Source: a virus. From it: DNA of 10,751 nt. This document shows, piece after piece, positions 459-9,306 of this stretch (its first letter is position 1; every line of letters begins with the position of its first letter). The position numbers and the translations under genes are program-made. Where the stretch lies: UHGV virus genome UHGV-1843114, one strand, 5' to 3'. The notes below the pieces were generated by a model. That model had not been told where the DNA came from, ran no database searches, and was given only the letters and a program-made list of their open reading frames with translations.

Positions 459-471
459 GGGGATCTCTCAG
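1..471 (+). mobile_element. IS10-family (IS4 family) insertion sequence, 3' portion; the element continues beyond the window start
   Basis: Transposase C-terminus encoded in 1-458, and the characteristic IS10 terminus GGGGATCTCTCAG ends at 471 (reverse complement CTGAGAGATCCCC). Recognised from memory. The sequence differs at a few positions from the IS10 I remember, so it may be a variant. Confidence 0.9.
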
Positions 472-638
472 CACTTCGCCTCTATCAGGCATGATGCTGA
501 ATTTCTGAATCCCATAGCATCTGGCTGTTCTCCGGTACTGGTTACAGCAACAAAGCGGTCATGAAAGCAAACCTTGAACCCGTTGCGCTTAAGGAACTTG
601 TACGCAATCTGACAGAGTTCGTGGTGTGTTAACGCCAT
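472..638 (-). pseudogene. 5' fragment (55 native codons) of a PD-(D/E)XK-fold gene, possibly MmcB-like, truncated by the IS10 insertion
   Basis: Minus-strand ATG at 636-638 preceded by AAGGAG. It translates to MALTHHELCQIAYKFLKRNGFKVCFHDRFVAVTSTGEQPDAMGFRNSASCLIEAK and then runs straight into the IS10 terminus, which supplies the stop (the frame ends ...AAG TG|C TGA across the 472/471 junction). The PD...EAK spacing fits a PD-(D/E)XK nuclease motif. Too short to appear in the ORF track. Confidence 0.55.
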
Positions 639-2021: not shown

Positions 2022-2369
2022 TCAGAACTCTTCGATGTTCCAGCCACCACCTGCTTTCTTTGGCTTAACCGTTACCCCGATGATTCGGAACGGATACTGA
2101 TCTGCGGCGACTTTGGTTTTCACTCTGGCGTCATCGGTCCAGAATCCCCCTTTCACTTCGTGCAGTTCCATCTCGCCGGTGGCGAGCATCACAGCAAAAT
2201 CTGGCGTATAGAACGTGTTGTCAGCTAACCGCAGCTTGATACCCTCAAATCGATACCAGACGATTTCTCCTGCACGTTTACGCAGCTCAAGGTGCTGGCA
2301 ATACGCAGATTCTGTTTTGTTCATCTGGCCTGTTTTGAGTCGACCAAGAGCCTGCATCTGTTTTCTCAT
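2022..2369 (-). CDS. Small PD-(D/E)XK nuclease-fold phage protein (DUF1064-like)
   Basis: 115-aa ORF with a motif ...YTPDFAVMLATGEMELHEVKGG... (D, then E-x-K) typical of PD-(D/E)XK nucleases. Overall resemblance to DUF1064 phage proteins from memory. SD AAGGGG upstream of the ATG at 2367-2369. Confidence 0.75.
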   Translation of the reverse strand: MRKQMQALGRLKTGQMNKTESAYCQHLELRKRAGEIVWYRFEGIKLRLADNTFYTPDFAVMLATGEMELHEVKGGFWTDDARVKTKVAADQYPFRIIGVTVKPKKAGGGWNIEEF

Positions 2370-2371
2370 GA

Positions 2372-2388
2372 TTTACCCCTTGGGTAAT
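2372..2388. promoter_or_regulatory. Operator-like 17-bp inverted repeat tTTACC-ccttg-GGTAAt, overlapping the SD of the DUF1064-like gene
   Basis: Perfectly symmetric half-sites TTACC/GGTAA with a 5-bp spacer. Same motif as the sites in the repressor/cro intergenic region. Confidence 0.45.
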
Positions 2389-2433
2389 TAAAAACCACAT
2401 AAGACACGAAATCAATAGATTTTAGAATATTTT

Positions 2434-2450
2434 ATTACCTCTAAGGTAAT
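2434..2450. promoter_or_regulatory. Operator-like 17-bp inverted repeat ATTACC-tctaa-GGTAAT
   Basis: Perfect 6-bp half-sites. Lies in the AT-rich gap between the P-like gene and the DUF1064-like gene. Confidence 0.45.
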
Positions 2451-2469
2451 TATCGAGACGTAAAAAAAT

Positions 2470-2481
2470 GCGCTATCGCGC
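2470..2481 (-). terminator. Weak candidate intrinsic terminator downstream of the P-like gene
   Basis: On the minus strand, GCGC-gata-GCGC hairpin followed by A plus TTTTTTT, 6 nt after the P-like stop. The stem is only 4 bp, so this is marginal. Confidence 0.3.
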
Positions 2482-2486
2482 TGGTA

Positions 2487-3287
2487 TTACTTGATAAATC
2501 CTGACGCCTTTCCCCGCCTGTATTCCTCCATCAGCCACTGCGCCGGTGTTATTCCCCCAAGGGTGGCGGCGTTAGGCATGCACCCGAAACTTCGCCCTGG
2601 TGGATGGTAAACATCTCTCCCTGTGTCCGGAGGCGTACTCATGGGTTCTGGCTTTGCCTGTATGCTGATCACCGGATCGGGTATCTGCTGTCCGGAAGCC
2701 ACCTTTTTCGCCCAATCATCGAGCAGCCTGCGCGCGTGTTTCTCAACCTCAATCTCGCTAAGCTGGCGCTGATACATTGCACGGCGGGTATCACATACGA
2801 CCCAGTACATAACCGGATGTCGCCACGGGAATCTTTCGGGACCACCAGGATATAAACTTTTTTCCTTGCTGTACCGGTGAAACTCCGCCATCACATCGTC
2901 AATGGTGACGCCAAGAACCATCTTGCTGTCTTTACACCACTTGATGAATTGCCCTGGCGACGGCCAGAACGGAGACTCACTGGCGCGGGCGTGGCGCATA
3001 CCAGCAGAAACCTGTTCACGGGTTCGGATCCCCCCTTCGGCAAACGCAGCAATCCACTGCTGTTTTGCAGCAACTTCCTGCTCTGGCGTCTTCAGGTTGG
3101 TTACCACTGCCGCCGGAAACAGTTGTTTCAGCTGTTTGAAAAGGGCATCAACAAGCCTCTCTGCTGACATGTTCACCACGTTGTCATTGTTGGTGTACTG
3201 ATGCTCATAACCTGACATGCGAGAAAGGGCTTCTCCGTCACGGTTTTGTATCGCGGTAAAAACGTTGTTCACAAGAAATCCTCCCAT
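2487..3287 (-). CDS. Replication protein P-like (DnaB helicase loader)
   Basis: 266-aa ORF. By-eye alignment to lambda P from memory: ...QLFPAAV... / ...ATFPASL..., ...EGGIRTREQVSAGMRHAR... / ...ENGITTMEQVNAGMRVAR..., ...PFWPSPGQFIKWCKD... / ...PFLPSPGQFVAWCRE.... Start is uncertain: the ATG at 3285-3287 overlaps the O-like gene's 3' end; alternative ATGs at 3216-3218 and 3168-3170. Confidence 0.8.
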   Translation of the reverse strand: MGGFLVNNVFTAIQNRDGEALSRMSGYEHQYTNNDNVVNMSAERLVDALFKQLKQLFPAAVVTNLKTPEQEVAAKQQWIAAFAEGGIRTREQVSAGMRHARASESPFWPSPGQFIKWCKDSKMVLGVTIDDVMAEFHRYSKEKSLYPGGPERFPWRHPVMYWVVCDTRRAMYQRQLSEIEVEKHARRLLDDWAKKVASGQQIPDPVISIQAKPEPMSTPPDTGRDVYHPPGRSFGCMPNAATLGGITPAQWLMEEYRRGKASGFIK

Positions 3288-4084
3288 GCTTCAGGGCTGT
3301 TCCAGTGCGGAACGTTGTTATCAGGTAATGTTGATTGCTTCTGTCTGCTAATCTGCAGCCGCCTTGCCAGCTTCTGCTCCCACTGTGCCTGATGGTATGC
3401 CTTACCCTCAGCCATCCAGTAAATTCTGAACTCTGCAAGTTCCTGTGCCGTTGGCAGACTGTCCAGGTAGATCCCCTGCAATGAGCTTTTCCGAAGAAAG
3501 TCATCTGATGGCTGCCATTGTTCATGCATGACAAATTTGCCTAATTGCCCTGGCCCACCAGGAGGAACAAAGTTATTCATCACGGCGTTGTTTGCGCCGG
3601 GGTCATGATGCACAGAATCCCCGTTTTTTGTCCTGCTCTCCCTCTCTTGGTTAAATGACTGGTTATATGACTGGTTCTGGATCCCGTTTTTGGGATCATT
3701 CAACATCCCGTTTTTGGGATCATTCAACATCCCGTTTTTGGGTATATTCCCGTTTTCGGTAACATTACCGTTTTCGGGTTCATTGCCCCCCTCTCGGTTG
3801 CCTTTAATGTTCCCGTTTTTGGTTATATTAAGAGAGAAAACCCGCACTCTTTTTGTCGCTCCCTTTCTCTCCCCGGTATCTGAAATAAGCCCCATTTTCA
3901 TGAGCGATATAAGTCCGGCCTGCACGGTTTTTTTATTCAGGCAAGTGTCTTTAACGAGGCGTTCTATGCTGGGGTAGCAGAGGTTATATTCATCGGCTCT
4001 GTCAGCCATCGAGAGCAGTATGAGCTTTAATGACGAGCTACCTGGATCTGTCTCCCAGGCCCAATCTGTTGCATGTCTGCTCAT
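3269..4084 (-). CDS. Replication initiator (O-like position): N-terminal HTH domain, iteron-encoded Asn/Gly-rich linker, DnaT-like C-terminal region
   Basis: 271-aa ORF, SD GGAG 9 nt upstream of the ATG at 4082-4084. N-terminus MSRHATDWAWETDPGSSSLKLILLSMADRADEYNLCYPSIERLVKDTCLNKKTVQAGLISLMKMGLI matches the HTH pattern of phage replication initiators (memory). Sits immediately upstream of the P-like gene and contains the iteron array. Confidence 0.8.
   Translation of the reverse strand: MSRHATDWAWETDPGSSSLKLILLSMADRADEYNLCYPSIERLVKDTCLNKKTVQAGLISLMKMGLISDTGERKGATKRVRVFSLNITKNGNIKGNREGGNEPENGNVTENGNIPKNGMLNDPKNGMLNDPKNGIQNQSYNQSFNQERESRTKNGDSVHHDPGANNAVMNNFVPPGGPGQLGKFVMHEQWQPSDDFLRKSSLQGIYLDSLPTAQELAEFRIYWMAEGKAYHQAQWEQKLARRLQISRQKQSTLPDNNVPHWNSPEAWEDFL
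3618..3830. repeat. Putative origin of replication: iteron array inside the initiator gene
   Basis: Seven copies of the core tCCCGTTTT(T)GG, starting near 3618, 3681, 3705, 3729, 3748, 3765 and 3810; three are exact 24-bp tandem units ATCCCGTTTTTGGGATCATTCAAC. Also a 10-bp tandem ATGACTGGTT at 3655-3664 and 3667-3676. Same layout as lambda ori inside gene O. Confidence 0.65.
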
Positions 4085-4099
4085 GATTAATCTCCGCTA

Positions 4100-4300
4100 T
4101 CAGCTTGAATGTTGTGGGGAGGAATTAATCATGATCTGCTTAATCTCTGCCCTGATACGACGGTTTGATTCCATGGTGCACTCAACACAGTGTCCGTTGT
4201 AAACCCAGCGTTCACTGTCATGTCCGTGCTTACATGTTTTTCCGGTGTAGTAGCGTTTAAGTCCGCGCTTTGCGGCATCAATACGTGTAATGATTTCCAT
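4100..4300 (-). CDS. Small putative zinc-binding protein (66 aa) at the cII position
   Basis: ATG at 4298-4300 with AGGG about 6 nt upstream. MEIITRIDAAKRGLKRYYTGKTCKHGHDSERWVYNGHCVECTMESNRRIRAEIKQIMINSSPQHSS contains C-x-H-x-H...H-C-x-x-C. The ORF track extends it to a TTG at 4363, which I consider less likely. Confidence 0.55.
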   Translation of the reverse strand: MEIITRIDAAKRGLKRYYTGKTCKHGHDSERWVYNGHCVECTMESNRRIRAEIKQIMINSSPQHSS

Positions 4301-4379
4301 GGTAAGCCCTGTTATTAGTATTGGGATTACGGTCATTTTGTGCTGACACAAAAAAAAGATCAACCAGATTTGGTTTTTT

Positions 4380-4396
4380 ATTACCTTTGAGGTACG
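4380..4396. promoter_or_regulatory. Operator-like site ATTACC-tttga-GGTACg between the terminator and the Zn-ribbon gene
   Basis: Left half-site perfect, right half-site 4 of 6. Same motif family as the repressor/cro intergenic sites. Confidence 0.4.
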
Positions 4397-4409
4397 AATA
4401 GATATGAAA

Positions 4410-4429
4410 AGACCGCCGGATGGCGGTCT
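4410..4429 (-). terminator. Intrinsic terminator downstream of the cro-like gene (tR1-like position)
   Basis: Perfect 8-bp stem AGACCGCC / GGCGGTCT with a 4-nt loop. On the minus strand it is followed by TTTTCATATC. No T-run follows it on the plus strand. Confidence 0.6.
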
Positions 4430-4450
4430 ACAGAGGGTTGTGGCTGGATA

Positions 4451-4681
4451 TCATGAGTAGAAGAAGTATGCCAGTTCTGCTTTTGAGCGCAGCCATTGTC
4501 TTGTTTTACAGGCTTTAAAAAGCCCATTCATCAATACCTTACCTGGCATTTTGCGCTTACCTGTTAAGTGAGTCTGGATATAGTGACTCGTCGTTCCGGC
4601 TTCCTGTGCGAAGGCTTCACGCTCATCCGGAGTAAGTGCAAGCCAGTGCTTTTTGAAATCGAAATGTCCGTTATCGCTCAT
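4451..4681 (-). CDS. Cro-like small HTH DNA-binding protein
   Basis: 76-aa ORF transcribed divergently from the repressor gene, with three operator copies in the shared intergenic region. Putative HTH around ...EAFAQEAGTTSHYIQTHLTGKRKMP.... Family assignment is tentative. Confidence 0.7.
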   Translation of the reverse strand: MSDNGHFDFKKHWLALTPDEREAFAQEAGTTSHYIQTHLTGKRKMPGKVLMNGLFKACKTRQWLRSKAELAYFFYS

Positions 4682-4716
4682 AGCTATTGCCTGATATTTA
4701 TTTCAGATAATAAATA

Positions 4717-4781
4717 TTCACCCATAAGGTAACAAAAATCAAGGATAGTTACCTATGAGGTGCATTTACCTGTTGGGTAAT
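4717..4781. promoter_or_regulatory. OR-like tripartite operator and divergent promoter region between the cro-like and repressor genes
   Basis: Three copies of the 17-bp motif: 4717-4733 tTCACC-cataa-GGTAAc, 4748-4764 gTTACC-tatga-GGTGCa, 4765-4781 tTTACC-tgttg-GGTAAT. A candidate minus-strand -35 TTGATT lies at 4736-4741 (read on the minus strand) with the first site in its spacer. Confidence 0.65.
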
Positions 4782-4835
4782 ATTGCTTTAAATTGAATCA
4801 TCTACTGATTCATATATGAGGCGATTTTCCAGAAA

Positions 4836-5420
4836 ATGAAAAGTATCCAGGACGTCCGCAGGCAAAATCTCAACGACTTGATCGACCGTGAATTCAATGG
4901 TGTTCAGACGCGGATGGCAGAAAAACTTGGAACTCAGGCAAATCTGGTAAACCGCTGGGCTCTTGGCAAGAAGGTTATCGGCGACCAGGTTGCACGAAAA
5001 ATTGAAGCTGCCGCCAATAAACCCCGTAACTGGCTTGATATTGATCGTTCGCTTTCTCAGGAGGGTTTTCAGCCTGTCGGCCCGAGCGATATAGGTCAGC
5101 TGGCGGCTCACAACCTGGAACGCTGGATGAGCGAAAGCCGCGACCTTTCAACACAGGGAAAACTTCACCGCGCATCCGGCGTCGCCCAGGTGACAATCAG
5201 CCGCCTGTTAAACAATGAGGTCAGCGTTTCCATTTCCACTCTGGAGAATGTTGCATCCGCATTCGGGCGTCACGGATATGAACTACTGATTCACCCGCAC
5301 GACCCTGCGACTATCAACTATGACCGCTCACGCTACGCATTGTTACCCGAAACCGAGAAAGCAAAGATCGAAAGTTACATTGAATTTGTCATCAACCAGA
5401 ACGAAAAAAGCAAACAATAA
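4836..5420 (+). CDS. Prophage immunity repressor (CI-like position), two HTH motifs, no LexA/S24-type autocleavage domain
   Basis: 194-aa ORF divergent from the cro-like gene. HTH-like segments QTRMAEKLGTQANLVNRWALGKK and ASGVAQVTISRLLNNEVSVS. No Ala-Gly/Cys-Gly cleavage site with a downstream Ser...Lys dyad was seen. Followed by a strong terminator. Confidence 0.75.
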   Translation: MKSIQDVRRQNLNDLIDREFNGVQTRMAEKLGTQANLVNRWALGKKVIGDQVARKIEAAANKPRNWLDIDRSLSQEGFQPVGPSDIGQLAAHNLERWMSESRDLSTQGKLHRASGVAQVTISRLLNNEVSVSISTLENVASAFGRHGYELLIHPHDPATINYDRSRYALLPETEKAKIESYIEFVINQNEKSKQ

Positions 5421-5440
5421 AACTATAGTTTTCAGTAAGT

Positions 5441-5466
5441 AAGCCGCCTCATGGCGGCTTTTTTAT
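5441..5466 (+). terminator. Rho-independent terminator of the repressor transcript
   Basis: Perfect 8-bp stem AAGCCGCC / GGCGGCTT, loop TCAT, followed by TTTTTTATT. Begins 21 nt after the repressor stop (TAA at 5418-5420). Confidence 0.75.
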
Positions 5467-5476
5467 TGCCAGATAG

Positions 5477-5555
5477 ATTACCTTGCGGGTAATTTTTTTA
5501 ACTCATATCTATTGACACCAAACCAAATAAGCATAATTATTACCTCAACGGTAAC
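5477..5555. promoter_or_regulatory. OL/pL-like region: two operator copies flanking a promoter
   Basis: Sites at 5477-5493 ATTACC-ttgcg-GGTAAT (perfect) and 5539-5555 ATTACC-tcaac-GGTAAc. Consensus -35 TTGACA at 5512-5517, with an AT-rich -10 candidate (AATTAT at 5535-5540, 17-bp spacer) partly overlapping the second site. Confidence 0.55.
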
Positions 5556-5728: not shown

Positions 5729-6028
5729 ATGAACGTTAATCAGCAGAAAAATCTTCAAAAAATCATGCTGGCATTCGACAAGGACTACCGCCTGTCAGAA
5801 CAGCTATATGACCGACAAGTTGAACTGATTGAGAGCATCCGACTTCATCAACTGTCCTCAACTTTCGACGTTGTAACAGGCAAAGGCGTTCGTCAGGAAG
5901 TGCTGGAGGCTGCTAAAGACAGCCCTGAGTTCGAAGAACTGATGGATTCCTACCGGCGCGAGGCAATGGCAATTATCGCCCGCTGGGATCTGGCGGATCG
6001 GATTGATGGGCAGAGGGAAGCGGCATGA
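5729..6028 (+). CDS. Hypothetical protein (99 aa) upstream of the exonuclease
   Basis: ATG at 5729 with SD GGGAGG 7 nt upstream; preferred over the track's 5714 start. Stop overlaps the exonuclease start (ATGATG at 6025-6030). No family recognised. Confidence 0.7.
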   Translation: MNVNQQKNLQKIMLAFDKDYRLSEQLYDRQVELIESIRLHQLSSTFDVVTGKGVRQEVLEAAKDSPEFEELMDSYRREAMAIIARWDLADRIDGQREAA

Positions 6029-6924
6029 TGCAGAACGCTGGAATCATGGATAGAACAAAATACATCGGAGGAAGCGATGTTGCAGGGATTCTTGGAATTA
6101 GCCCATGGCGCACCCCGCTTGAGGTTTATCTGGATAAGGTCCAGCCACGTGTCAAACCAGTAGACCCAAGCAAGCAGAAAGTTTTCACGCGTGGCCAGCG
6201 TATGGAGCCATACGTAATAGACCTGCTTTCTGAGGAAACAGGGATGGAAATCGTTCATCGCGGAAACCGCTATATCCACCGTGATTACGATTTTATTGCA
6301 GCTGAGATCGATGCAGAAGCAGCGTCAGGCGAGAACATTGAGATCAAAACAGTTAGTCCGTTCAAAGCCAAAGAATGGGGAGAAATCCAGACAGATGCAA
6401 TTCCTGTGCATTACACGGCCCAGGCCATGCACGGGTTGATGGTTACAAACAAACAGGTATGCGTTTTCGGTGTGCTTATCGGTGGCGACGACTTCCGAAT
6501 CTATCGGGTTGAGCGTGATGAAGAAACTATCCAGGCGATCTTAGAAAAAGAAATCGCTTTCTGGGACCGAGTGAAAAATCTTAACCCGCCGGAAGCTACC
6601 AGCGTAAGCGATGTATCGCTGATGTTTGAGAAAGATGCAGGGACAAGTATCGAGGCTGACGGAAAGGCACTCGCACTATTCAACGATCTACGAGACATGA
6701 AGTCACGCAGAAAATCACTGGAAGAAGAAATAGCTATATCAGAAGAGAAGCTGAAGATGTACATGCAAGAGCACTCAGTCCTGACCCTGGACGGAAAGCC
6801 GCTCTGCACATGGAAATCTCAGATCAGCAACAGATTCGACCAGAAGCTATTCCAGTCAGTACACCCTGAGTTATTCGAAAAATTCAAAACAACAACGACA
6901 CAACGCGTCTTCAGAATGAAGTAA
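6025..6924 (+). CDS. YqaJ-type viral exonuclease (lambda Exo-like recombination exonuclease)
   Basis: Motifs ...YIGGSDVAGILGISPWRTPLEVY... and ...IEIKTVSPFKAKEWGE...VHYTAQAMHGLMVTNK...FWDRV... match the YqaJ-like PD-(D/E)XK recombinase family (memory). Directly upstream of recT. Start is 6025 or 6028 (or 6046). Confidence 0.85.
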   Translation: MMQNAGIMDRTKYIGGSDVAGILGISPWRTPLEVYLDKVQPRVKPVDPSKQKVFTRGQRMEPYVIDLLSEETGMEIVHRGNRYIHRDYDFIAAEIDAEAASGENIEIKTVSPFKAKEWGEIQTDAIPVHYTAQAMHGLMVTNKQVCVFGVLIGGDDFRIYRVERDEETIQAILEKEIAFWDRVKNLNPPEATSVSDVSLMFEKDAGTSIEADGKALALFNDLRDMKSRRKSLEEEIAISEEKLKMYMQEHSVLTLDGKPLCTWKSQISNRFDQKLFQSVHPELFEKFKTTTTQRVFRMK

Positions 6925-6933
6925 GGAGAAAAA

Positions 6934-7956
6934 ATGTCTATCAATGCACTTAAGGCAGCGGCTACCGGTAACCAAGTTGCACATCATAATGAGAAACCAA
7001 CAACTCTGGCCGGACTTCTGGCAGACCCAAAAATTAAAGCTCAGATGGCTTTGGCACTTCCAAAGCACATGACAGCAGACCGTCTGGCGCGCATAGCAAC
7101 CACAGAGATCCGAAAGGTTCCAAAACTTGCATCATGCGACCAAGCCAGCTTCCTGGGGGCAATTATGCAATGTGCCCAATTGGGTCTTGAACCAGGCGGA
7201 GCTCTTGGACACGCTTACCTGATACCGTTCGACAAACGCCAGAAAGTAAATGGAAGATGGGAAACCGTATCTACAGAAGCACAGCTGATTATCGGCTATC
7301 GCGGAATGATTGACCTTGCCCGCCGCTCTGGGCAGATCCTGAGTATCTCGGCTCGTACCGTACATACAAACGACAAATTCAGCTACTCATACGGCCTGGA
7401 AGAAACGCTCGAGCATTTACCTTGCGAAACAGGTGACCGCGGAGAATTAACGCACGTTTACGCCGTTGCACGACTGAAAGATGGCGGAGTCCAATTTGAA
7501 GTTATGAGCCGGGCAGACATTGAGAAAGTTCGTGCACTGAGCAAAGCCGGTAGCAGTGGCCCATGGGTTGATCACTTCGATGAGATGGCTAAAAAAACAG
7601 TAATTCGCCGACTATTCAAATATCTTCCTGTTTCTATTGAAATGCAGAAGGCTGTTGTTATGGATGAGCGCGCTGAAGCTGGACTTAGCCAAGATAACGC
7701 AGCTGTTATCACTGGTGAATATTCCGTAGTTGACGATGAGCGTCAACACCTGTCGCCAATTTCAGATTCAGAACGAGAAGAAGCTCGAGAATATATCATC
7801 GCGATACTTAATAGCCTGGATCCATCTGCTGAAGATGCAAAAACGATGTTCAAGCGCGCTGAAAATGAGATTAACACCATGGCTGAAAAGCTCGGTGATG
7901 AATATCACCAAAAATTCATGATGACGCTTAACGATATGCGTCCAGAATTCGAGTAA
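6934..7956 (+). CDS. recT: RecT-family single-strand annealing recombinase
   Basis: 340-aa ORF with SD AAGGAG 7 nt upstream. RecT-like segments ...GHAYLIPFDKRQKVNGRWET...LIIGYRGMIDLARRSGQ.... Paired with the YqaJ-type exonuclease. Confidence 0.9.
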   Translation: MSINALKAAATGNQVAHHNEKPTTLAGLLADPKIKAQMALALPKHMTADRLARIATTEIRKVPKLASCDQASFLGAIMQCAQLGLEPGGALGHAYLIPFDKRQKVNGRWETVSTEAQLIIGYRGMIDLARRSGQILSISARTVHTNDKFSYSYGLEETLEHLPCETGDRGELTHVYAVARLKDGGVQFEVMSRADIEKVRALSKAGSSGPWVDHFDEMAKKTVIRRLFKYLPVSIEMQKAVVMDERAEAGLSQDNAAVITGEYSVVDDERQHLSPISDSEREEAREYIIAILNSLDPSAEDAKTMFKRAENEINTMAEKLGDEYHQKFMMTLNDMRPEFE

Positions 7957-8363: not shown

Positions 8364-8663
8364 GTGAGAAAGTTAAGCCGACTTGAAAAATATCACATGA
8401 ACAAGGTTTCAATGCGCAGTCCGTCAAAGATTGTCGCCGTTACTCCTGCGGCGATAGAGATCGAAAAACGCGCGATTGAAAGAGAGAAAAAAGGGCAGTT
8501 CCGCATTGCCGCTCACCTTTGGCTTCAGTGTATGGATGTTGCTTCTGGTGATGTTGAGCGTGCAAGGATCGCGGTTCGCAGGGACCAATGTATCACAAAA
8601 GGTAACGGCCTTCGCCGTGGAGACTATAGCGGTATAGGATGTTGCGGGGTGGTTTATGACTAA
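8364..8663 (+). CDS. Small regulator, ANR-like (AraC negative regulator family) candidate
   Basis: ORF with uncertain start (GTG 8364, ATG 8397 or ATG 8415). ...FRIAAHLWLQCMDVASGDVERARIAVRRDQC... fits the ANR-family pattern as I remember it. Its 3' end overlaps the methyltransferase start by 8 nt. Confidence 0.5.
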   Translation: MRKLSRLEKYHMNKVSMRSPSKIVAVTPAAIEIEKRAIEREKKGQFRIAAHLWLQCMDVASGDVERARIAVRRDQCITKGNGLRRGDYSGIGCCGVVYD

Positions 8664-9306
8664 GAAATACACACTAATCTATGCAGATCCACCCTGGGTA
8701 TACCGGGACAAAGCCGCAGATGGTAATCGCGGTGCCGGTTTTAAATATCCGGTTATGAGTGTGCTGGATATCTGCCGCCTTCCTGTGTGGGATTTGGCCG
8801 ATGAAAACTGTCTGTTGGCCATGTGGTGGGTGCCAACACAACCACTCGAAGCACTAAAAGTTGTTGAAACCTGGGGATTCCGTCTGATGACGATGAAGGG
8901 CTTCACGTGGATAAAATGTGGTAGTCGACAACCAGATAAACTGGTTATGGGTATGGGACACATGACTCGCGCCAATAGTGAAGATTGCCTGTTTGCGGTA
9001 AAGGGAAAACTACCTACGCGCATTAATGCAGGGATCGTTTAGTCATTTACCGCACCGCGGCTTGAGCATTCAAGAAAGCCAGATATCGTTCGTGAAAAAC
9101 TTGTGCAATTATTAGGCGATGTTTCTCGCATTGAACTGTTCGCCCGCCAGACGTCTCATGGCTTCGATGTTTGGGGTAATCAGTGCGAAGACCCGGCAGT
9201 GCAACTACACCCTGGATACGCGTTGGATATTGGCGGATTAACAAATGCATTCAGCAATGCTCCGCTGTCACCAACAGACAACCAGGGGCGGGAGCGTGCT
9301 GCATGA
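8656..9306 (+). pseudogene. MT-A70-family DNA N6-adenine methyltransferase interrupted by a single in-frame TAG at 9040-9042
   Basis: The N-terminal ORF (8656-9042) carries the catalytic motif ADPPW. The same frame continues after the TAG as SFTAPRLEHSRKPDIVREKLVQLLGDVSRIELFARQTSHGFDVWGNQ..., which contains the family's conserved HSRKP and ELFAR...WGN motifs, to a stop at 9304-9306. The track splits it into two ORFs in the same frame. Confidence 0.75.

Follow-up and report, generated by a model that had tools for sequence, protein, structure and literature searches.

A family of 17-bp palindromes as probable operators of terminator-insulated, repressor-gated transcription units in a phiV10/epsilon15-like prophage

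We analyzed a family of 17-bp palindromes in the 10,751-nucleotide DNA of the viral genome UHGV-1843114 (the whole stretch is called the window below). Eight copies of the sequence ATTACC-N5-GGTAAT are present in the window, and they are probably the operators of the prophage's own repressor Rep. Five of them lie in the right and left operator regions (OR and OL), whereas the three extra ones would serve two further promoters, for which we coined the names P_R2 and P_R3, and the transcription units behind these promoters would be insulated by terminators and gated by Rep. The window represents an epsilon15-type prophage, in which each transcription unit, including the replication operon, would be gated separately, rather than a lambda-like switch with odd extra operators.

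All eight sites claimed in a preliminary description of this DNA were found at the positions it had given. They are listed here with their mismatches to the consensus and, for the three extra sites, with the score of the weight matrix described below:

2372-2388: candidate proximal operator of P_R3, on the predicted +1; 1 mismatch, 19.0 bits
2434-2450: candidate distal operator of P_R3, centred about -62; perfect match (0 mismatches), 21.1 bits
4380-4396: candidate distal operator of P_R2, centred about -60, 13 bp downstream of the cro terminator stem; 2 mismatches, 15.3 bits
4717-4733: OR site nearest cro; 3 mismatches, TTGATTTTT invariant in four phages
4748-4764: middle OR site and weakest of the family (GTTACCTATGAGGTGCA), 31 bp from 4717-4733 and abutting 4765-4781; 4 mismatches
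4765-4781: OR site nearest the repressor gene, overlapping the likely -35 region of the repressor promoter; 1 mismatch
5477-5493: distal OL operator, centred about -62, conserved in four phages; perfect match (0 mismatches)
5539-5555: proximal OL operator, on the expected +1, 62 bp from the distal one; 1 mismatch

With up to three mismatches, the window contained 10 matches compared to 3.55 expected, a number reached in none of 200 shuffles. To avoid circularity, a symmetrised weight matrix was trained on the five OR/OL sites alone. This matrix recovered all three extra sites, as expected for the single operator family that had been proposed, and the next-best score elsewhere in the window was 11.1 bits. 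In 1000 windows simulated with a first-order Markov model, hits with at least 15 bits occurred with a mean of 0.016. The comparison with host DNA that the preliminary description had called for left the operator family standing, as no comparable motif density was found in E. coli DNA: 100 kb of the chromosome contained no site with at most one mismatch and five with exactly two, and the best matrix score in 50 kb was 11.5 bits. The motif is a phage-specific feature and not a product of chance.

Over 3.8 kb, the window shares 97-98% identity with phiV10, phiv142-3, and PAS61, which belong to the genus Uetakevirus (epsilon15-like podoviruses), and its gene order is that of sequenced members of this genus (int, recT, exo, rep, cro-like, gp40-like, DnaT-like, P, DUF1064). 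The two regulatory genes are divergent:

4836-5420, plus strand: repressor Rep, 194 amino acids; Pfam assigns an N-terminal helix-turn-helix (HTH) DNA-binding domain and a middle HTH_3-type domain, followed by a C-terminal oligomerisation region
4451-4681, minus strand: Cro-like protein, 76 amino acids; PHROG 35 'transcriptional repressor', E = 5.6e-13

Pfam returned only HTH families for Rep and no Peptidase_S24 domain (LexA-like autocleavage), and it gave no match for the Cro-like protein. In a phmmer search against the PDB, residues 1-190 of the 194 residues of Rep aligned to the repressor Rep of phage SPC32H (5d50_A, E = 3.5e-42). Rep is 43% identical to the Rep proteins of epsilon15 and SPC32H, and the stretch NLVNRW (residues 36-41) is invariant in the alignment. 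According to papers citing the structural work, SPC32H Rep consists of an N-terminal DNA-binding, a middle dimerisation, and a C-terminal tetramerisation domain (PDB 5D50, 5D4Z); it reportedly acts as a tetramer on palindromic sites, with paired DNA-binding domains coming from different dimers, and is reportedly inactivated by the small antirepressor Ant, which is under SOS control. The ant gene is not encoded within the window. In phiV10, the protein phiV10p24 is an Ant homologue with 88% identity to SPC32H Ant, and a perfect LexA box (TACTGTATAAACATACAGTA) adjoins the ant start codon about 40 bp from a Rep operator in epsilon15 (L003 19839-19858) and Tyrion (L004 about 21720-21745), which fits the SOS control reported for SPC32H Ant. 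Because of the full-length homology of Rep, the Ant of phiV10, and the LexA box of epsilon15, the switch is, as judged by homology, of the SPC32H Rep/Ant type and not of the lambda CI/RecA type. The lambdoid CI/Cro immunity region originally assumed is not what we found, since the phage is phiV10/epsilon15-like and its repressor is a homologue of SPC32H Rep without an S24 domain. What is lambdoid in style is the arrangement, with three sites between the divergent repressor and cro-like genes (4717-4781) and two sites at 5477-5555.

The same motif is found throughout the genomes of related phages. With at most two mismatches, phiV10 contains 15 sites compared to 1.3 expected, Tyrion 16 compared to 1.0, and SPC32H 18 compared to 1.0. 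In epsilon15, a matrix trained on the window gave 13 hits with at least 12 bits, and 13 of 13 were located in short intergenic gaps. The sites occupy recurrent positions in the different phages: two sites with a spacing of 18 bp directly before terS; single sites before the head genes, in the gap between ant and the tail-fibre gene, in the gap between O-antigen-modification and lysis genes, and before int; an OL pair 62 bp apart, to which a third OL site is added in epsilon15 and SPC32H; an OR trio with spacings of 17 and 30/31 bp, found also in epsilon15, Tyrion, SPC32H, and a Serratia prophage; a single site after the cro terminator; and a pair 62 bp apart after the replication genes. Overall, paired sites were spaced by 17/18, 30/31, 62, or 75/76 bp, the last of these at OL of epsilon15 and of the Serratia prophage. 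One motif thus occupies the terS, head, tail-fibre/ant, lysis, int, OL, OR, replication, and resolvase gaps.

The RefSeq record of epsilon15 (NC_004775) carries seven 'protein_bind: repressor / lysogeny' features on such sites, so dispersed repressor sites in the Rep/Ant family of Uetakevirus are already annotated. The annotated sites are predictions. They share the 17-bp motif and the genome positions found here, the site at 35906-35922 being the orthologue of 2434-2450 in the window, and the OL sites correspond; the record omits the OR trio, the proximal partner at 35968-35984, and the sites downstream of cro. epsilon15 differs from the window in having three OL sites (62 + 76 bp), a RuvC-type resolvase gene after the cassette described below, and no P gene. 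With the motif at almost every promoter-bearing gap and seven sites marked in this record, the three sites that the preliminary description had singled out as lying outside the classical positions are no exceptions.

The motif and its places are also shared by the Serratia prophage, whose Rep is 54% identical, by the divergent E. coli prophage L090 (59%), and, as to the motif, by Tyrion (78%). Relatives with a different operator were sought as evidence for covariation of repressor and operator, and epsilon15, SPC32H, Tyrion, and the E. coli and Serratia prophages all proved to share the motif; Rep was 99-100% identical in all of the 80 IMG/VR loci that the Rep alignment retrieved. A near-invariant NL(V/I)(N/S)RW stretch (residues 36-41) accompanies the same motif in Rep proteins of E. 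coli, Salmonella, Enterobacter, and Serratia phages that are only 43-59% identical (compared repressor loci: window 4836-5420, L003 32690-33286, L089 10001-10597, L090 10001-10588). Serratia Rep has an insertion beside the conserved NLVNRW/NLISRW stretch. Operator specificity looks frozen across the group, perhaps as a consequence of the genome-wide dispersal of the operators, which, if true, predicts cross-immunity.

The two operators 18 bp apart before terS (L002 41-125, L003 11-47, L004 66-102) were noted in their own right. In epsilon15 and Tyrion, the ATG adjoins the second operator. In phiV10, the terS start annotated at position 41 places both operators inside the gene, so that the true start probably lies further downstream.

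In alignments of four phages, conservation around the operators resembles a footprint: the half-sites and the -35 and -10 hexamers are invariant, whereas N5, the promoter spacers, and the flanks vary. Among 77 phiV10-like loci, the core half-sites TTACC/GGTAA of 2434-2450 are constant and its centre has many alleles. At OL, where a promoter is indispensable, the following elements accompany the two operators:

5441-5460, plus strand: intrinsic terminator after the repressor gene; 8-bp stem, -16.6 kcal/mol, z = -4.25
5512-5540, plus strand: early-left promoter TTGACA-17-AATTAT; 10/12 consensus positions, CTATTGAC invariant

The order at OL is repressor stop codon, terminator, distal operator, T tract, CTATTGACA with the -35 region (5512-5517), 17-bp spacer, AATTAT (5535-5540), and proximal operator, and the sites 5477-5493 and 5539-5555 indeed stand on either side of the early-left promoter, as had been claimed. 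At OR, 4717-4733 sits in the spacer and -10 region of the predicted early-right promoter PR (minus strand, -35 TTGATT 4742-4737, -10 AATATT 4718-4713).

The OL-type geometry is repeated in the gap between the P-like and DUF1064 genes, which contains two of the three extra operators together with the following elements:

2462-2481, minus strand: weak intrinsic terminator after the P-like gene, GCGC-GAUA-GCGC followed by U7; -8.4 kcal/mol, z = -2.55
2387-2415, minus strand: predicted sigma-70-type promoter P_R3; -35 TTGATT 2415-2410, 17-bp spacer, -10 TTTAAT 2392-2387

Read on the minus strand, the order is P stop codon, terminator, distal operator (2450-2434), A tract, CTATTGATT with the -35 region, TTTAAT, and proximal operator. 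The terminator is annotated in phiV10 and conserved in four phages. TATTGA and TTT.AATTACC of P_R3 are invariant in the four phages, and the predicted promoter shares the ATCTATTGA context of the -35 region with the OL promoter. In the proximal operator, ATTACC..GGTAAATCATG is invariant in phiV10, epsilon15, and Tyrion. The overlap of this site with the Shine-Dalgarno sequence of DUF1064 was borne out: the ATG at 2369 (minus strand) follows directly, so that the operator contains the Shine-Dalgarno sequence. The operator pairs at OL and in the P/DUF1064 gap are both spaced by 62 bp centre to centre, and this spacing is kept at both loci in the window, phiV10, epsilon15, Tyrion, SPC32H, L090, and also the ST95-32 prophage. 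An alternative promoter suggested by the consensus scan, TCGATA-16-TAAAAT across the distal operator, was rejected because its -35 region is not conserved in the relatives.

The gene that follows the P_R3 cassette is DUF1064 in the window (2022-2369), phiV10, and SPC32H, and a RuvC-type resolvase gene in epsilon15 (L003 35987-36451) and Tyrion (L004 37345-37809). PHROGs places DUF1064 under Holliday-junction resolvase. The junction of the swap lies exactly at the ATG that follows GGTAAATC; on sequence grounds, one gene has been replaced by a non-orthologous one behind a regulatory cassette that is conserved.

The third extra operator belongs to a similar arrangement downstream of the cro-like gene:

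4410-4429, minus strand: strong intrinsic terminator after the cro-like gene; 8-bp stem, -15 kcal/mol, z = -5.2; annotated in phiV10
4335-4363, minus strand: predicted promoter P_R2 of the Zn-ribbon/DnaT-like/P operon; -35 TTGATC 4363-4358, 17-bp spacer, -10 CAAAAT 4340-4335
4320-4336: weak candidate for a degenerate proximal operator of P_R2 at +1; ATGACCGTAATCCCAAT on the minus strand, ATGACC-GTAAT-CCCAAT, only the left half-site recognisable

The position of 4380-4396 between this terminator and the Zn-ribbon gene was confirmed. ACC..GGTAAT of this operator as well as GGTTGATCTTTTTT and AAAAT of P_R2 are invariant in four phages, and an A6 tract lies between the operator (4396-4380) and the -35 region. 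The left half of the proximal site is a perfect ATTACC in epsilon15, where the post-cro proximal operator appears to be split (L003 33785-33816), with ATTACC and GGTAAT 18 bp apart instead of 5; an AAAGA repeated 13 bp apart suggests a small duplication. The preliminary description had seen in the extra sites a direct control of replication-distal genes by the repressor or Cro. Direct control beyond OR and OL is indeed what the sites imply, but 4380-4396 precedes the Zn-ribbon, DnaT-like, and P operon and hence does not represent control of replication-distal genes.

A terminator precedes each cassette. Based on this organization, we propose that the early-right region is cut into units by intrinsic terminators rather than transcribed as one long operon read by antitermination, and that each unit would restart from its own Rep-gated sigma-70 promoter. 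The cassette would consist of a terminator, an A/T tract, a distal operator near -60, the -35 and -10 regions, and a proximal operator on +1. P_R2 would drive the genes for the Zn-ribbon protein, the DnaT-like initiator, and P, and P_R3 the DUF1064 resolvase gene and nin-like genes. If both are real promoters, the early-right arm comprises three units (cro; replication genes; resolvase and nin-like genes), each of which would be silenced directly by Rep and not indirectly via PR plus antitermination. In the lysogen, one Rep tetramer with its two pairs of DNA-binding domains could clamp the distal and proximal operators and thereby occlude the promoter. The distance of 62 bp corresponds to about 5.9 helical turns, which places both operators on the same face of the helix, and the A/T tracts beside the distal operators could assist DNA bending. 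Upon SOS induction, LexA-controlled Ant, whose gene lies outside the window, would disassemble the Rep tetramers, and all units would fire together. With respect to antitermination, the first genes behind the early-left promoter had no Pfam or PHROG function, and no Rfam family matched in the window.

Several points weigh against this proposal. Binding and transcription in this phage are deduced from sequence, and the identity of ATTACC-N5-GGTAAT with the experimentally defined operator of SPC32H is presumed. The consensus promoter scan called neither P_R2 nor P_R3, as both scored below its threshold, and the region showed no enrichment of promoter-like hits (5 found, 5.1 expected). In phiV10-type phages, P_R2 has no more than a half-site as its proximal operator, and RNA polymerase is not occluded by a repressor that occupies -60 alone. 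As P_R3 is preceded by a weak terminator, read-through may be as important as re-initiation. Moreover, with one motif common to all relatives, there is no contrast from which covariation of repressor and operator could be read.

One alternative, which we consider unlikely, is that Rep bound at the post-terminator sites acts as a roadblock, similar to stoperators, and halts polymerases that read through from PR in the lysogen. It would suit the location of 4380-4396 and 2434-2450 only 13-20 bp downstream of terminators, the weakness of the terminator before 2434-2450, and the absence of a good proximal operator at P_R2. However, stoperators are asymmetric, oriented sites within operons, whereas the sites found here are palindromic and bracket conserved -35 and -10 hexamers. 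Furthermore, the same cassette occurs at OL after the terminator of the repressor gene, where a promoter must exist, and the motif is also present in divergent late-gene gaps, in which there is nothing to read through.

It is similarly improbable that the extra sites serve mainly the Cro-like protein or another phage regulator, which would damp or time early transcription during lytic growth. Lambda Cro shares its operators with CI, the 76-aa protein of the window falls into a PHROG of transcriptional repressors, and a second palindrome, AACCATATATGGTT, co-occurs in similar form with the operators. Nothing ties the Cro-like protein to the 17-bp motif, however, and the presence of the motif in late, lysis, and integrase gaps agrees with a silencer that acts globally in the lysogen. 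Use of the sites by the Cro-like protein is compatible with binding of Rep.

The AACCATATATGGTT-like palindrome occurs genome-wide 9 times in Tyrion (1.4 expected), 8 times in phiV10 (1.5 expected), and 6 times in epsilon15 (1.3 expected), with most copies in gaps that contain Rep operators (replication, resolvase, OL, head, tail-fibre, lysis). No copy was found at OR, and the palindrome was not significant in the window alone. The enrichment was limited to the 14-bp palindrome version, as the motif CATATGTGGTT was not enriched at up to two mismatches. Copies are located as follows:

window 4362-4375: clear copy
window 2393-2406: weaker copy
window 5518-5531: weaker copy
L004 26452-26465: copy in Tyrion
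L002 24736-24749: further copy

The AACCATATATGGTT-like palindrome may be the site of a second regulator, and its location beside the operators suggests that more than one regulator probably acts at these promoters.

It is very unlikely that the conserved cassettes mainly link modules for recombination and that the extra palindromes have no regulatory role. The swap of the downstream gene precisely at its ATG and the high mosaicism of the intergenic module in the population would suit such linkers, but invariant half-sites around a variable N5, the fixed 62-bp phasing, and the identity with the OR/OL motif would remain unexplained. Chance matches, for which only the low-complexity, AT-rich context of the intergenic DNA could be cited, are refuted by the window, simulation, and E. 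coli statistics together with the orthologous conservation, and their probability is negligible.

The proposed gating by Rep can be compared with several known systems. The likeness to SPC32H comprises the full-length alignment of Rep and the presence of the motif at the same places, including the 62-bp pair before the DUF1064 gene of SPC32H. In contrast to SPC32H, the ant gene lies outside the window and the prophage looks defective, and tetramerisation, operator binding, and Ant sensitivity of the Rep studied here are assumed by analogy. Like lambda, the window has three operators between a repressor gene and a cro-like gene that diverge from each other, further operators at the early-left promoter, and a terminator after cro. 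It differs in the repressor without S24 domain, in the two OL sites at about -62 and +1, in the extra operators at downstream promoters, and in that no N/nut system was recognisable in the window. To our knowledge, lambda has no operators beyond OR and OL.

Repressors with dispersed operators include C1 of P1, gp71 of mycobacteriophage L5 with its stoperators, and CB of N15, which acts at repA. As in these phages, one repressor would use many sites spread over the genome and directly control replication genes. The repressor proteins are unrelated, though, and the sites of P1 and L5 are asymmetric, those of L5 being oriented roadblocks inside operons, whereas the sites in the window are palindromes that bracket promoters in phased pairs. 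A mechanistic parallel is offered by Rco of plasmid pLS20, a TetDloop tetramer for which looping of the DNA between operators spaced by 75 bp is described (PMC9986798). Rco and SPC32H Rep reportedly both combine an N-terminal HTH domain with a C-terminal tetramerisation domain, and repression via two operators tens of bp apart is reportedly relieved by an antirepressor (PMC9986798). Similar distances of 75-76 bp separate the OL operators of epsilon15 and the Serratia prophage. Rco differs in that it reads arrays of direct 8-bp repeats and not 17-bp palindromes, and looping by the phage Rep is proposed by analogy.

Sequence diversity within the operators was analyzed in 76-82 phiV10-like loci with 99-100% identical Rep. 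A baseline nucleotide diversity (pi) of 0.021 was obtained for 7142 positions and of 0.045 for 557 four-fold sites. The central base pairs 2441-2443 of the operator 2434-2450 were multi-allelic with a pi of 0.56-0.59, and 77 loci carried 37 haplotypes of this operator. High variability was also seen in the stretches that separate terminator and distal operator (2451-2461 and 5471-5476); together with N5 of 2434-2450, they were the most polymorphic spots of the window (pi 0.5-0.65), and the two most diverse 5-nt windows overall were 5471-5475 and 2440-2444. The positions 2378-2382 and 5484-5488 were also listed among the polymorphic spots. Pairs of loci that differed by 0.23% in 680 bp of flanking sequence differed by 9.5% in N5 (2440-2444); the comparison was made with 340- and 600-bp flanks. 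All four allele combinations were present at two flank positions 4 bp apart, and up to five N5 alleles were found among loci with identical 150-bp flanks, which indicates recurrent change. Hypervariability of the centre as a general trait of the operators was rejected, as it was absent at 4380-4396, at OR, and at the proximal OL site, and the operator centre was not hypervariable in the epsilon15-like population either.

Taken further, these data allow a broader picture that is tentative at best: Rep as the only repressor could silence entire Uetakevirus genomes at 12 or more insulated promoters, with one tetramer per promoter clamping a 62-bp operator pair and without antitermination, operators would be frozen with cross-immunity as a consequence, and the centres of some distal operators may be hot spots. 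At these hot spots, the non-contacted centre and the upstream flank may change by mutation or conversion, about 10-fold above synonymous diversity. In the accessible literature, we did not find stated the cassette of terminator, operator, promoter, and operator, the invariant 62-bp phasing, the operator-embedded ribosome-binding sites, the operator downstream of cro, or the constancy of the operator motif across Rep proteins only 43-54% identical. Text searches for the motif returned only primer noise, and the ZX5 paper does not describe the operators.

If correct, the operators at -60 and +1, 62 bp apart, give a concrete geometry for the 'trans' binding of the tetramer proposed for SPC32H Rep, and gating of each unit by Rep would explain how such phages could do without antitermination. 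In addition, the motif reliably marks promoters and gene starts in prophages of the phiV10/epsilon15 type, and such prophages are frequent in pathogenic E. coli and Salmonella.

Judged from its sequence, the prophage looks defective. Positions 1-472 are the end of an IS10/ISVsa5 (IS4-family) element, whose terminal inverted repeat GGGGAAATTATGAGGGGATCTCTCAG is found at 447-472. This element interrupts the right arm of the prophage, and its insertion truncates the open reading frame 468-638 (minus strand). The gene for an MT-A70 adenine methyltransferase (8656-9306) contains an in-frame amber codon (TAG) at 9040-9042, where an intact prophage copy has CAG, so that the gene is a pseudogene here. 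The exonuclease (YqaJ) and RecT are encoded by separate genes in the window (6025-7956) and in epsilon15, whereas the phiV10 record has a single fused RecET. Four to six iteron-like direct repeats of 24 nt (ATCCCGTTTTTGGGATCATTCAAC) are located at 3681-3830 inside the gene for the DnaT-like initiator and, by analogy to lambda O, probably mark the replication origin.

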